Shown one piece after another: positions 1,492 to 64,000 of a DNA stretch of 64,000 nucleotides. The DNA is taken from assembly GCA_010093995.1 (NCBI GenBank), contig ML992507.1, positions 264,781 to 328,780 on the forward strand, read 5' to 3'. Within the stretch, counting starts at the first letter, position 1, and the number at the start of each line of letters is the position of its first letter. Below the pieces are notes generated by a model. It saw only the letters and a program-made list of their open reading frames with translations, did not search any database and had not been told where the DNA came from. The DNA is from Elsinoe ampelina (Eukaryota). Position numbers and translations under genes: made by a program.

Positions 1492-2772
1492 CTACTCCAT
1501 CCCCTGCATGAATTCCACTTTATCAAGCACCATCCCTCTCACTCCCGCCCATTCTCGCAGCTCGTCCCATTCTGCCCCTTCCTCGTCGCCCCACTTTACG
1601 CGGTTCCTGAAACCCCATGCCTGCGCTATTCGATCCACTGCCGCTCGTTCTTCTTCCCTCACCCATCGCTCCCAGAGTGGCATCCCGCTCGACCACGTCA
1701 CGCGCACCATTTGGTCATTGGCCGTCGTCACGGCAATGTACCCCATGCTGCCTACGACGGCGATGTAGGTCATGATGCCCGCCATAGCGACGGTCGTGGC
1801 GTGTCCAGTGTCCATTGTTGTTTGGATCAGGGCAAACTTGTTCGCGAGGGTGTAGGCTGCGATTGGAGCTATGAATGTGCCGGCTATGGGCACGATGGCG
1901 CTCTTGATGATCTTGAAGCGTGCGTAGGATTTGTGGCAGTAGGTGGAGTCGATGATGGAGAGGGCGAGGGGCAGGGAGTGGTACTTGATTGCTGCTGAGA
2001 GGGCGATTTCTGCTACATCGGGGTGAATGGCGACTGATGGGGCGTTTGGGGAGGGGGCGGCGAAGGTGATGTATGGGGCTTTGTCGAGAGGGCGTGGGGA
2101 GGGCTTGTTGCGGTAGAGGTCGAATAGAGCGGGAAAGTTTTGGGGGCGGTTGAGTTGGGCTTGGAGTCTGATGTAGCTTCCAAGTATGTCGGAAGAGATG
2201 AACACGGATGGCAGCTCCATGAGTCGCGTAGCCTTCTCTGAGATATCATTAAGCAGGTCACTGGGGTCGATCTGGGTGCCTGGCTGATCCTTATGCATGG
2301 CTTTGAGCATGGCGGAAGTCGCTGTTGCTGATGTGCCTTTCGATCCTTGTCCCGGCACAGGTCTTTCATGATTGCTAGGATATTTCTCGACTATCGCCTG
2401 GTATGTTCGCAGCACTTCCAGTACGTCCTTCTCGTCGGGTATCTTCTTCGTGCTTCGAGGGTCTCCAGAGACAGAGTCGTACAGCGTACGAATCAAGCTC
2501 TGCTGTTCTGCAATGTCCGCGGTCACAGTCGGCAATGGCTCCGACTTCTTGCTACCCGATGTCAAGAAGGTCCTCTGGTGTTGTGCGCGACATCGCTGTG
2601 ACAGGCTGGGCCGGTATGATCGGGTTTGTGGTGCTTTTGCTTGCTGGAAACATTTCGGGGAATATGTAGCTCGTCCGGATGTCTGTAATCGATCGCGTAA
2701 GGCTAGCGATGATCGGACTGGTACAGCGAAGGAGCAAACCTGTCTCGGAGGCCGTACTCGTGGTCCTGACAT
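1492..2772 (-). CDS. Uncharacterised fungal protein with a probable mitochondrial presequence and two C-terminal TM helices
   Basis: 426-aa single ORF; Arg/Ser-rich N-terminus lacking acidic residues; hydrophobic segments IVPIAGTFIAPIAAY and VAMAGIMTYIAVVGSMGYIAV; Trp-rich C-terminus. Confidence 0.75.
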   Translation of the reverse strand: MSGPRVRPPRQVCSFAVPVRSSLALRDRLQTSGRATYSPKCFQQAKAPQTRSYRPSLSQRCRAQHQRTFLTSGSKKSEPLPTVTADIAEQQSLIRTLYDSVSGDPRSTKKIPDEKDVLEVLRTYQAIVEKYPSNHERPVPGQGSKGTSATATSAMLKAMHKDQPGTQIDPSDLLNDISEKATRLMELPSVFISSDILGSYIRLQAQLNRPQNFPALFDLYRNKPSPRPLDKAPYITFAAPSPNAPSVAIHPDVAEIALSAAIKYHSLPLALSIIDSTYCHKSYARFKIIKSAIVPIAGTFIAPIAAYTLANKFALIQTTMDTGHATTVAMAGIMTYIAVVGSMGYIAVTTANDQMVRVTWSSGMPLWERWVREEERAAVDRIAQAWGFRNRVKWGDEEGAEWDELREWAGVRGMVLDKVEFMQGME

Positions 2773-3019
2773 CTTCGATGGATGTCTGTGGGTGTCCTGT
2801 TGAAAATTCCAGAGCTTGATGCCGCGCGGAAGTCAAGACAGCAGCGGGAATGACGAACGACATTCAGGCTGCGGACTTCTCAAGGTAACTTCGTTTCTTA
2901 CATCCTCATATACCCAAACAATTTATACTAGCGATTTTCTTGTGCACAGCCTCGACATCTCCCAAGGACTAAGACTATTCACCGAAAGCATTGAGTAGTG
3001 GAACAGCGCATCTCCGGCC

Positions 3020-4464
3020 ATGCCGGCTCCTCCCCCACCACCACCTCCTCCACCACCGCCCGGAGCTGCAGGAGGTACGCTGGCATGAATGCGGACAAAT
3101 TGTAGTCAGCGAGCTCACTCGAAAACAGGTCCGCCACCTCCACCACCTCCCCCGCCTGGAGGGCTCCCTTCAAGACCTCCGCCCGCTGCTGCGAAAGGCA
3201 GGGTACGCGCCGGCGCCCGAAACCCAGCAGGGGACCCCCAGCTAATGCATGACAGGGAGCTTTACTTGGCGACATCACGAAAGGCAAACAGTTGAAGAAG
3301 ACCGTCACAAATGACAGATCCGGTGCTATAATAGAGGGAAAGAAGAACGCGGGTCCATCACCTCTCGGCGCACCTCCCGTGCCAGGTGGTGCACCCAAAG
3401 CTCCTTCATCGTTAGCTCCTGCGCCGCCAGGAGCCAATCGCGCTCGCGCGAATAGTGATTTGGGAGATGGTGGAGTGAGTGGCGGGCCACAGCTTGCTGG
3501 TATTCTGGCTGGTGGAATACCCAAGCTTCGCAAGACTGGTGGAATCAAGACGGGCGCAGAGACCGATTCGCCATATCTTTCAGATCCGGAGCCAAGACGA
3601 CCGTCTGCTGGACTTCGCTCTGCTACGGCTCCAAGACCCCCACCAGCACCTCGAGTACCTGGCGGAGCCCCTCCCCCTCCCCCACCTGGAGGAGCACCAG
3701 CGCCGCCTCTGAACCCAGCTGTAGCAGCATTGAAGGGAGGATTACGACCAGTTTCGACGGGCGATATTGGCGGGGACGATCCAAGACGAGCGTCAACATT
3801 AAGTTTGCCTGGCAAGCCCAAGCCCCCTGCGCCAGGCAAGAAACCCCCTATTCCTCCGCCCGCCTTCCGAAAGCCTTCAGGTACAGCGCCACCACCACCA
3901 TCTGCTGCACCACCACCGCCCTCCACATCCCCTGCGCCTCCACCCGCTCCCCCTCCACCGCCCTCGAGTGCACCTCGACCACCACCAGCGCCATCTATAC
4001 GATCGCCCCCACCGCCCCCATCTGCCTTGCCACCTACAAGCGCACCGTCACCTTCGATAGCCGAGCAGGCGGCGAGGAGTGCTTTTGGCGTTTCTCAGGG
4101 CTCGACAGCATCACCTCCCGCATCGCCTGCTCCCCCACCACCACGACCGCCAGCTAGTGCTGCTCCTCCCCCGCCTCCAGCGCCTCCCTCGCTGGCACCG
4201 TCCGCCCCACCTCCTCCACCTTCAGCGGCCCCGAGCCGAAGACCACTGGACGCATCAGCATACACTCTCACGAACGGTAATGGAATATCGCCAAGTCCTT
4301 CTCAGGTGACCTCGGGTGTCGCTCGGACTATGATCGAGAATCCAAAATGGAAGTTTCAACCAGATGATTCGCTGCCAAAGCCCAGAGATTTCACAGGTGG
4401 ACCCAAGCGATATAGAGCGGGAAGGGGAAGCAGTGTGCCACTGGATCTGGCCGCGTTTCAATGA
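3020..4464 (+). CDS. VRP1: Verprolin / WIP-like proline-rich actin-binding protein (3 exons)
   Basis: ATG 3020 MPAPPPPPPPPP; introns ~3075-3128 and ~3203-3255; spliced WH2 motif GALLGDITKGKQLKKTVTNDRS; PQLAGILAGGIPKLRK; C-terminal KWKFQ..LPKPRDF..KRYRAGRGSSVPLDL. Confidence 0.9.
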
Positions 4465-62246: not shown

Positions 62247-62770
62247 GAGACGGGTTGAGCACGATGGGAGACGTGGTTGGAGGGTGGCGGGCTCGGGGCA
62301 GGTAGAGATGGCTCGAGTGTGGGTCTAGCGAGATCGGCTCTCCGTTAATGGAAGGGAGCAGGGTAGGATAGCAATGTCCAAGCGAGAGACGAGACTCGAG
62401 GCATGTCTTTGAAGGGCCAAGGTCACCAGTGATGAGATTGGTAAGGACTCACTAGAAGCACGAAGAGGCTGTGAGTAGACAGAGGGGTGTAGAAAGTGAT
62501 GCAGCGCTTGCTTTTTGCCACGCCATGGATATAATCCAATCAAAAATATCCCAACATCATCGGCGCCGTCGTGTGCCCGATCAAGCCACATGTCTACTCA
62601 TGTCCTCTTCATCTTCCCCTCATCACACTTTCCAGTCCACACCACCACTCCCTCGTCGATCTTCTGTCCTGGACGCCTCTCTGCTCCTCTTCCCGCCATC
62701 CTCCCATCCCACCCCCCTCCCTTTCTCACCTCCTTCCTACCCCTCCGTCCCCCTTCTCCTTCTCGGATCC

Positions 62771-64000
62771 CTAATCCCCCCCAACCTCATTACTAACATA
62801 CCCCACCCCCTCGACCTCGACAAACTCCTCCTTTACCGCCCTGGCACTCACGAACCGACCCAACAAATTCTGGCTCCCCGCCTTATCATTCGTCCCGCTC
62901 CCCCTCGCGCCCCCAAACGGCTGCTGACCCACCACCGCCCCCGTGCACTTGGTGTTGATATAGAAATTCCCCGCAGAATGCCGCAACTTGTCCTCCGCGA
63001 AACGGATCGCCGCTCTGTCCTTGGCGAAGACGGCGCCGGTCAGTGCGTACGAGGTGGTGGAGTCGATGGTCTCGCAGACGGAGGAGAATGCGGAGGCGTC
63101 CTTGTCGGCGTACTCGTAGACGCAGAGGATGGGGCCGAAGAGCTCTGTTTTCATGAGGGGGTGGTCGGGGTTGGTGGTCTTGTAGATGGTCGGGTGGATG
63201 TAGAAGCCTTTGCTGTCGTCGTAGGTGCCGCCTGCGAGGAGCTCGAGTTCCGGGTCGGATTTGGCGGCGTCGATGGCGGATTTGAGCTTGTCGAAGGAGG
63301 CGCGGTGGATCACGGGGCCGATGAAGTTCTCGGCGACTTCAGGGGGGCCGACTTTGAGGGCTTTGGTCTCGCGGATGAGCGGCTCGAGGAAGGCGGAGGA
63401 GAGGGAGGAAGGGATATAGGCTCGCGAACAGGCGGAGCACTTTTGGCCTTGGTATTCAAAGGCGCCCCGGACGGTTTGTAAGGCGGCGTTGACGGGGTTG
63501 GCAGAGGGGTGGATGAGGTGGTAGTTCTTGCCACCGGTCTCGCCGACAATGCGAGGGTAGCCGGCGTAGGTGCCGTCTGCGACACCCTTGGCGATCTTGC
63601 CCCAGAGTGAGCGGAATACGGCGGTGGAGCCTGTGTAGTGCAGGGCGGAGAACTCGGGGCGGGCAAGGACGGTCTTGGTGACTTCTTCAGCGTCACCGGG
63701 TACGAATTGGATGACGTTTGGTGGGAGGCCAGCTTCGAGGAGGATCTGATAGACGAGCCAATTGGAGGCAATGGCAGATGGCGAAGGCTTCCAGACTACG
63801 ACGTTACCCATGAGAGCAGGAGCAGTGGGCAGATTGGCGGCAATGGCAGTGAAGTTGAAGGGCGTAATGGCGTAAACGAAGCCCTCGAGTGGACGATACT
63901 CTACACGATTCCATACTCCTGGCGCGTTGTGGACAGGTTGTGTGTTGTACAGCTCCTGAGCATACTTGACGTTGAATCTGTCACCCGATCAGTTCCTGTT
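62771..64000 (-). CDS. PUT2: Delta-1-pyrroline-5-carboxylate dehydrogenase (5'-partial; an intron runs off the window edge above ~63977)
   Basis: [84 protein letters not shown]. Confidence 0.96.

Follow-up and report, generated by a model that had tools for sequence, protein, structure and literature searches.

The genome of the fungus Elsinoe ampelina contains, in a stretch of 64,000 nucleotides (contig ML992507.1 of assembly GCA_010093995.1, positions 264,781 to 328,780; hereafter the window, numbered from its first letter), a series of islands in which a C-rich arm on the + strand passes through a short centre into a G-rich arm. We confirmed that these C-to-G skew islands are a real and strong observation. 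The pattern is anchored to genes, acts on fourfold and twofold degenerate sites, introns and flanking non-coding DNA, has pulled amino-acid composition along with it, and lies in the same places in related Elsinoaceae. Because nearly all C-to-G steps lie in coding sequence (CDS), most placeable G-to-C steps lie between genes and the skew tends to flip before stop codons, we consider it fairly probable that the islands are an extreme, island-like form of gene-end GC skew, a property of transcription units and not free-standing symmetric elements. An earlier sequence-only reading of the window had described them as products of a fixed, bidirectional process independent of gene direction; overall, that interpretation is partly supported.

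Skew islands in the window

All island counts refer to this one 64 kb window, which has a GC content of 54.4% and no overall skew. Its 400-bp profile of GC skew, (G−C)/(G+C), ranges from about −0.7 to +0.6. Switches were located with a step detector, in which the GC skew of the left 300 bp is subtracted from that of the right 300 bp (threshold 0.6), and a three-state hidden Markov model (HMM) run on G/C sites was used to call skewed segments as C or G. The detector returned 16 C-to-G steps of at least 0.6, at 1785, 5118, 9760, 10451, 12429, 13325, 16079, 23688, 30768, 31419, 39773, 44699, 54043, 61607, 62199 and 62997, the biggest being that at 16079, where the skew moves from −0.63 to +0.79 (step +1.41). 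Each of the 15 centres named in the sequence-only reading has a C-to-G step within 135 bp, and the step at 13325 is additional. Steps of the opposite sign are about equally sharp and almost equal in number: G-to-C and C-to-G steps number 15 and 16 at a threshold of 0.6, 4 and 9 at 0.8, and 3 and 2 at 1.0.

The HMM called 41 skewed segments with an absolute GC skew of 0.4–0.7, covering 20.4% of the window compared with 3.3% for 30-bp block shuffles and no segments at all for 20 mononucleotide shuffles. In 15 cases a C segment is followed by a G segment at most 485 bp away; the arms are 0.1–0.7 kb long, and the short neutral centres between them have a GC content of 0.55–0.72. The stretches that had been singled out as quiet are indeed HMM-neutral (16736–22884, 31798–36755, 40149–42576, 45289–48794 and 54007–60306). 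Contigs from three other sequencing runs match the sequence of the islands at 99% or better, and 14021–16340 is spanned by a single independent contig with 0 differences. Since these contigs agree across the islands, the island sequence is no assembly artefact.

Silent sites and introns

Genes were annotated by Pfam, two protein searches and spliced RNA contigs; the contigs revealed 11 introns within the first 20 kb of the window. Spliced joints appeared in three of the sequencing runs, and the RNA contigs are unstranded. Scoring of open reading frames (ORFs) by codon usage gave rough gene models only.

Pooled over seven genes, fourfold sites are 70% C and 7% G in C arms (n = 761) and 65% G and 18% C in G arms (n = 448), whereas in neutral CDS (n = 1929) every base accounts for 22–29%. 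At twofold pyrimidine (Y) sites, C accounts for 86% in C arms, 45% in G arms and 60% in neutral CDS, and the corresponding values for G at twofold purine (R) sites are 37%, 88% and 61%. The fourfold A:T ratio is approximately 1.9 in C arms versus 1.0 in G arms, and codon positions 1 and 2 shift in the same direction as the arms. When synonymous codons were permuted within each gene (500 shuffles), the observed C-to-G step exceeded 500 of 500 shuffles in all seven island genes. Roughly one half to two thirds of the step survived shuffling in each gene, showing that amino-acid composition moves the same way as the skew. In each of ten other genes some shuffles reached the observed step, the fewest being 2/500 in the gene of the HCO3-transporter family, which has a weak 3′ switch, and the next fewest 16/500.

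The flip of synonymous third positions from C to G within one CDS, noted in the sequence-only reading, is well illustrated by Nop4, whose fourfold sites comprise 0 G and 34 C over codons 0–60, 19 G and 1 C over codons 120–180, and are approximately uniform thereafter. The first 150 codons of the aspartyl protease gene are uniform at fourfold sites; windows starting at codons 180–420 then have C at 26–38 of 35–46 sites, followed by G at 21 of 28. Two introns within islands had also been claimed to carry the skew. Spliced RNA contigs confirm both, and both are C-rich in the sense direction, with 60% C and 6% G at 10608–10702 and 49% C and 13% G at 5586–5630. Introns outside the arms are without the bias, and DNA after stop codons also carries skew. 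The skew therefore did not vanish at fourfold or intronic sites once amino acids were controlled for. As fourfold sites, synonymous shuffles and introns inside arms are all biased, it is not explained by amino-acid composition.

A different pattern was seen in the S-adenosylhomocysteine (SAH) hydrolase gene (37308–38417), which has no G arm and whose fourfold sites are uniformly C- or T-ending (G 0–2 per window). This is ordinary translational codon bias and distinct from the C arms, which are poor in T as well.

Position relative to genes

Fifteen of the 16 C-to-G steps fall inside CDS and one at a stop codon. The 15 G-to-C steps comprise nine between genes, four in CDS, all of which are outer edges of arms, and two in unannotated DNA (49392 and 61365). 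CDS thus holds 15/16 C-to-G steps compared with 4/13 placeable G-to-C steps (Fisher p = 0.001), and the four sharpest G-to-C steps, at 62518 (−1.11), 16517 (−1.08), 10045 (−1.00) and 43544 (−0.90), are all intergenic. Anchoring 27 genes on their stop codons gave a mean sense skew of −0.17 from −900 to −600 (positive in 4/27, Wilcoxon p = 0.0004), −0.14 from −600 to −300 (7/27, p = 0.004) and +0.15 from −300 to 0 (19/27, p = 0.011), so that the sign changes approximately 300 nt upstream of the stop codon. These results run against the earlier suggestion that the switches are independent of gene position; the switch points follow gene ends. In the sense direction, strong C richness and a dearth of G give way, usually 100–450 nt ahead of the stop codon, to strong G richness and a dearth of C that continue through the stop and beyond. 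Nop4 and the kinase-like gene depart from this by switching in their 5′ part. Convergent pairs tile as two successive C–G units, one island per gene, joined at an intergenic G-to-C step (9540–11077, 30176–31796 and 61901–63524).

The sequence-only reading took the equal polarity in + and − strand genes as ruling out transcription skew. Reverse complementation leaves a C-then-G pattern unchanged, so any gene-oriented pattern of this kind looks identical on both strands, and the equal polarity is no evidence against a transcription-linked cause. Furthermore, the sign of AT skew across the centre is the same in 10 of 16 islands, changed in five and zero on one side in one. Because the A:T ratio differs between arms and AT skew mostly keeps the sign of the gene, a gene-oriented component is superimposed on an incomplete mirror symmetry of the arms. 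Anchored on start codons, sense skew is negative in 9/14 genes from −200 to 0 (p = 0.02) and in 11/14 from 0 to +300 (p = 0.06), several of these starts being uncertain. No fewer than three of the first ATGs taken as starts are wrong, since the Pfam domain of the gene begins further upstream. In the genes at 43613–45019, 53930–54682 and 22281–24011 the domain starts precede the first in-frame ATG, so these three must have a further 5′ exon.

Several 3′ ends in the window lie very close together. A distance of 72 bp separates the stop codons of Spc25 and the kinase gene, and only 20 bp separate those of a convergent class-II tRNA synthetase gene (+) and ORF 1492–2832 (−) (1469–1494). A single RNA contig crosses four genes (1–5572), and since it spans them, the 3′ ends around 1469–1494 probably overlap.

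Composition and folding of the centres

The centres had been described as CpG-dense. CpG counts within 100 bp of a step are indeed raised at C-to-G switches (approximately 20, compared with 11 at G-to-C steps and a window average of 13), and CpG density is 10.9 per 100 bp in centres versus about 6 elsewhere. We found no specific CpG excess in the centres: the observed/expected ratio is 1.14 there, 1.05–1.06 in arms and 0.90 in neutral DNA, while that of GpC in centres is 1.10. As the CpG ratio barely exceeds that of GpC, the CpG core mainly reflects the coincidence of abundant C and abundant G.

Of the guanine-quadruplex (G4)-type motifs in the window, 22 of 23 are found within arms and occupy the strand that leads away from the centre, a placement that follows from arm composition. 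We also asked whether the islands are selected hairpins or inverted repeats. Folding of 660-nt segments of six islands gave minimum free energy (MFE) z-scores of −2.5, −1.0, −1.3, −0.05, +1.7 and +0.07 relative to 25 arm-wise shuffles; in five of the six the folding energy was no better than that of the shuffles, and cross-arm pairing was no higher. Arm-to-arm complementarity therefore does not go beyond composition, and this candidate was rejected. Slippage was likewise rejected as the cause of the islands, since tandem repeats fill only a small part of the arms. Tandem Repeats Finder (TRF) returned 21 rows in the window, all short (20–150 bp), of which 15294–15475, 15845–15895, 16193–16220 and 39204–39264 are inside arms.

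Comparison with related fungi

To follow the effect on protein, we scored amino acids by G minus C at codon positions 1–2. For Nop4, the scores of the C arm and G arm are −0.72 and +0.59 in the window, −0.65 and +0.50 in E. australis, −0.42 and +0.30 in Myriangium, and about −0.02 and about +0.2 in Aureobasidium proteins. Among 25 Nop4 sequences compared over the C arm none is more C-coded than that of the window, and among 26 compared over the G arm none is more G-coded. The gradient runs from the window through E. australis and Myriangium to the others, and all are alike in the neutral middle. The P5C dehydrogenase (Put2) fragment of the window is 100% identical to a protein listed by NCBI under Elsinoe ampelina. 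For Put2, the C-arm scores of the four Elsinoaceae are lower than those of the other 17 orthologues without exception, and in the G arm the four are among the five highest. These orthologue comparisons show that islands differ in position between lineages, keep their place within a family and are powerful enough to alter proteins. The localised strand-asymmetric process postulated in the sequence-only reading holds up in this respect, as the bias acts at silent sites, introns and DNA resembling untranslated regions (UTRs), at sites common to related species.

The 5′ Nop4 island of the window is absent, at fourfold sites, from 80 metagenome loci with Nop4 relatives. Many of these loci have G-rich fourfold sites in the last 50–100 codons only, and other fungi (loci L046/L047/L057/L075 and L065/L066) carry a C-rich-then-G-rich island towards the 3′ end of Nop4; the phenomenon is not confined to Elsinoaceae. 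In these six loci the skewed fraction is 36–57% of the locus. Among 61 distinct Nop4 orthologue loci, all-site skew is positive in 61/61 over the last 300 nt before the stop and in 57/61 over the previous 300 nt, with no step above 0.5 in any of the 61; a basic and acidic C-terminus drives this all-site skew, which is therefore uninformative.

The database model of Nop4 for this genome (P0001, 574 aa) begins at Met202 of a 775-aa ORF (14025–16349, −) that the orthologues span end to end. It omits the first 201 residues, that is the whole C arm and RRM1, and the unusual composition seems to have misled the gene prediction.

The three runs that match the window show only 8 differences from it in 20 kb, too few to polarise substitutions. 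Two of the runs, X4 and X7, carry different organism codes and share six differences from the window (5532, 11838, 12663, 13227, 13733 and 19560); they appear to be the same strain of this fungus. A further run, X12, was rejected as a relative, as it matched only via low-complexity pieces of 20–38 nt.

Relation to known skews

The closest likeness is to the gene-end skew of yeasts. In the sections of McLean & Tirosh (2011; PMC3315797) on which we draw, the coding strand of yeasts and most unicellular fungi favours C towards the 5′ end of genes and G towards the 3′ end; the bias reaches fourfold sites, promoters and 3′ UTRs and alters amino-acid use, AT skew is flat along genes, and the link to expression is weak. 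The authors propose either phase-specific transcription-coupled mutation or adaptive avoidance of C. The window shares the sense C bias upstream and the G bias towards and past the stop codon, its presence at fourfold sites and in non-coding DNA, the amino-acid shift and a roughly uniform AT skew. In contrast to the modest genome-average gradient described for yeast, the islands are discrete blocks of about 1 kb with near-saturated silent sites, in which a C arm abuts a G arm while sequence elsewhere in the same gene is neutral; they occur in a filamentous Dothideomycete plant pathogen, and two of them lie in the 5′ part of the gene. A search of the open-access literature found no description of such islands and no extension of opposite gene-end skews to filamentous fungi. 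What is new here is thus the discrete abutting-arm form, the amplitude and the occurrence in a filamentous plant pathogen; the gene-end polarity itself was already known.

Promoters of filamentous fungi carry CT-rich tracts. A C>G skew around transcription start sites is described for plants and some fungi in the part of Fujimori et al. (2005; PMC555766) used here. The C-rich sense 5′ leaders in the window, at 36758–36929 upstream of the SAH hydrolase gene and in Nop4, resemble this skew, which does not explain C arms hundreds of codons into CDS, nor the G arms. In mammals, Ginno and colleagues are said to have linked GC skew with R-loops at CpG-island promoters and gene 3′ ends (2012, 2013), and reportedly tied terminal GC skew to termination in human genes (2013). 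The similarity lies in the centre, which is rich in GC and dense in CpG and is followed downstream by a G-rich non-template strand, and in G-rich 3′ ends in gene-dense regions. The differences are that the centres of the window lie in coding exons with a CpG ratio barely above that of GpC, and that the sense strand of the same gene is C-rich over the upstream arm.

Until now the gene-end GC skew of fungi had been described only as a trend averaged over genes; in the window, the same polarity takes the form of sharp blocks close to saturation. Individual islands make the phenomenon tractable, as they can be compared between Elsinoe species. They show local composition overriding codon usage and amino-acid content, they break gene prediction, as in the database model of Nop4, and they would mislead analyses of codon bias, selection or phylogeny that assume stationarity within genes.

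Origin of the islands

If the islands are an extreme form of gene-end skew, their source would be a strand-asymmetric substitution bias coupled to transcription, with its sign set by where in the transcription unit a site lies. The sense strand would gain G from A and lose C to T in G arms, and the antisense strand would do so in C arms. Fourfold sites show a further asymmetry between purines and pyrimidines. A-to-G together with C-to-T is the classical signature of the exposed non-template strand in mammals. Speculatively, a self-reinforcing RNA–DNA hybrid loop, in which G-rich RNA forms a more stable hybrid and hence causes more exposure, would explain the extreme amplitude. Several points weigh against reading the islands as gene-end skew. 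The yeast pattern is a weak average gradient, whereas long genes here are neutral for hundreds of codons and then have abutting C and G arms; such genes (the aspartyl protease, Puf6, Rrn6 and ORF 1492–2832) are unpredicted by a simple 5′-versus-3′ model. The 3′ sign holds in only 19/27 genes, and 8–11 genes, including that of SAH hydrolase, have no clear island. The test anchored on start codons is weak, at 9/14 negative and p = 0.02 with several starts uncertain. The C arm acts as if the template strand were exposed, which sense transcription alone does not explain. Finally, mutation bias and selection are not separable from the present data, which come from one 64 kb window. A bolder version makes each island a self-organising unit, in which strand exposure by transcription and G enrichment reinforce each other via RNA–DNA hybrids, sense transcription driving the downstream arm and antisense transcription the upstream arm. 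Such units would correspond, inside fungal genes, to the CpG-island skew of mammals, staying at fixed sites for the lifetime of a fungal family and rewriting protein as they intensify; we regard this as unlikely.

A selective account has somewhat better prospects, though we remain doubtful of it. Here the skew would be adaptive through nascent or mature RNA or hybrid formation, with G-poor upstream sequence kept unstructured or hybrid-poor and G-rich ends slowing or terminating RNA polymerase II in a compact genome. The bias covers all transcribed DNA, namely CDS, introns and DNA after stops, and follows gene direction; the genes are extremely close, as at the first convergent pair and at Spc25 and the kinase gene; the strand placement of the G4-type motifs fits; and adaptive C-avoidance is one of the two hypotheses in the part of PMC3315797 drawn on above. 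On a gene-by-gene reading, however, the presence of a G arm is unrelated to the distance or orientation of the downstream neighbour, and the G arm begins about 300 nt inside CDS, far upstream of plausible cleavage sites. Dragging protein sequence along would be costly for a regulatory signal. The Nop4 island lies elsewhere or is absent in orthologues from other fungi, so it is not a conserved functional element of the gene. We rate still lower, as decidedly improbable, autonomous bidirectional elements seated at the C-to-G switch, namely cryptic divergent starts or hybrid-prone zones within genes, comparable to the CpG-island promoters of mammals, from which the strand leaving the centre would be the exposed non-template strand on both sides. 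The arms do abut as a unit even where the rest of the gene is neutral, the centres are GC-rich with the highest CpG density, and the twofold and fourfold signatures are roughly mirrored between arms. Their placement is not free, however, as stops fall in the downstream arm and all but one of the centres in CDS, there is no specific CpG excess, and the fourfold A:T ratios leave the mirror symmetry incomplete.

The remaining causes had all been put forward in the sequence-only reading. C-to-G is the polarity of skew at bacterial and human replication origins, and the arms of an island are complementary in composition, as long hairpins between the C arm and G arm would have it. We judge both origins and hairpins extremely unlikely. 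Origins are disfavoured, being excluded in practice by the location of the centres in CDS, by their density (16 in 64 kb, one per approximately 4 kb) and by their scale: the skew extends approximately 0.5 kb per side with an amplitude of 0.5–0.7, whereas the origin jumps of bacteria and human N-domains extend over tens of kb to Mb. Hairpins find no support in the folding results. Fixed meiotic break hotspots at gene ends, combining biased repair or GC-biased conversion with strand-specific damage of resected DNA, are also very unlikely. The islands are local GC peaks, with fourfold GC of 73–95% over the Nop4 island versus 45–73% downstream, and hotspots in budding yeast have a density similar to one island per approximately 4 kb. 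Hinch et al. (2023; PMC7615360) provide, in the part used here, a kilobase-scale precedent that flips strand at a centre, as the 3′ tails of human meiotic breaks lose C and A in a strand-asymmetric manner. Were the break to lie at the C-to-G centre, however, this human signature would give the opposite polarity, and were it to lie at the intergenic G-to-C step the signature would fit the near arm only, isolated islands such as 22886–24114 having no partner. Conversion should lift both G and C, and the disfavoured base instead drops below its neutral level of about 60% at twofold sites (G at R sites to 37% in C arms, C at Y sites to 45% in G arms). In Zymoseptoria, also a Dothideomycete, the sections of PMC5844332 considered here describe biased conversion as extremely weak or absent, with 6–20% of hotspots colocalising between species.

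Individual islands

Coordinates of the islands and associated segments are listed below. In the island of Nop4, the G arm of the + strand covers the first ~90 codons and the 5′ leader. In the kinase-like gene the 5′ part is C-rich in sense and the remainder G-rich to the stop codon.

Table 1. Skew islands and related segments of the window. C, centre and G segments are on the + strand; 0/500 means that the observed step exceeded all 500 synonymous shuffles.
Positions	Gene strand	Gene or region	C segment	Centre	G segment	Remarks
1467–2176	−	3′ end of ORF 1492–2832 (no Pfam match)	1467–1673	1675–1845	1846–2176	Step +0.88 at 1785; fourfold skew −1.0 to +0.33; 0/500
4678–5786	−	Most of arginase-family gene (Pfam Arginase) and intron 5586–5630	4678–5021	5022–5296	5297–5786	
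9540–10004	+	3′ end of CUE-domain gene (Pfam CUE)	9540–9639	9640–9762	9764–10004	Weak; step +0.63 at 9760; gene has RNA-contig introns
10006–11077	−	3′ part of rhomboid gene (Pfam Rhomboid) and intron 10608–10702	10006–10360	10363–10467	10468–11077	Step +1.10 at 10451
12433–13624	−	Spliced gene, two switches (12429, 13325)	13122–13295		12433–12748 (from stop codon); 13296–13624	Introns 13349–13430 and 13488–13644 are 35–39% C and 10–11% G in sense
14012–14280	−	3′ end of Nop4 (stop codon 14022)				Second, weaker segment, G-rich in sense; sense skew +0.46 in last 300 nt
15296–16553	−	5′ third of Nop4 (CDS 16349–14025)	15296–16017	16020–16080	16081–16553	Strongest island; centre inside RRM1; 0/500
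16559–16735	−	3′ end of HCO3-transporter-family gene (Pfam; stop codon 16603)				G-rich in sense; abuts Nop4 island at G-to-C step 16517 (−1.08)
22886–24114	+	3′ half of aspartyl protease gene and DNA past stop (24011)	22886–23573	23574–23807	23808–24114	0/500
30176–31085	+	3′ end of ORF 29746–30807 and DNA past stop	30176–30628	30629–30801	30802–31085	Step +0.94 at 30768; meets next island at G-to-C step between convergent genes
31092–31796	−	3′ end of CPL/Puf6-like gene (stop codon 31110)	31092–31254	31255–31556	31558–31796	Fourfold skew −0.8 then +0.6; 0/500
38950–40148	−	3′ exon of Rrn6 (Pfam Rrn6; stop codon 39138)	38950–39302	39304–39772	39773–40148	Fourfold profile follows arms; 0/500
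42577–43510	+	Spans short Spc25 gene (Pfam Spindle_Spc25; stop codon 43541)	42577–42776	42777–43261	43262–43510	
43939–45288	−	Diacylglycerol (DAG)/sphingoid-base-kinase-like gene	43939–44441	44442–44698	44699–45288	Step +0.97; 0/500
53710–54800	−	Over HAD-hydrolase gene (stop codon 53930)	53710–54006 (HMM: C arm only)		Weaker, to ~54800	Step +0.75 at 54043; profile +0.17 to +0.35 over 54001–54800
61401–62501	+	Two weak islands in Vps26 (Pfam Vps26)	61401–61592; 61901–61979		61759–61898; 62196–62501	Steps at 61607 and 62199
62502–63524	−	3′ end of P5C dehydrogenase (Put2) gene (stop codon 62771)	62502–62942	62943–63050	63051–63524	Fourfold C at 20–29 of 29–39 sites, then G at 20/28; 0/500

Two regions, 28.2–29.7 kb and 49.3–53.8 kb, remain without annotation. 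The second of these (49271–53775, about 4.5 kb) has several + strand ORFs of 110–358 aa with no Pfam match, and a 600-bp G-rich segment (48796–49392) lies just upstream of it. The first includes, at 28570–28719, a 36-bp tandem repeat of 4.2 copies with 81% matches and a TRF score of 188.

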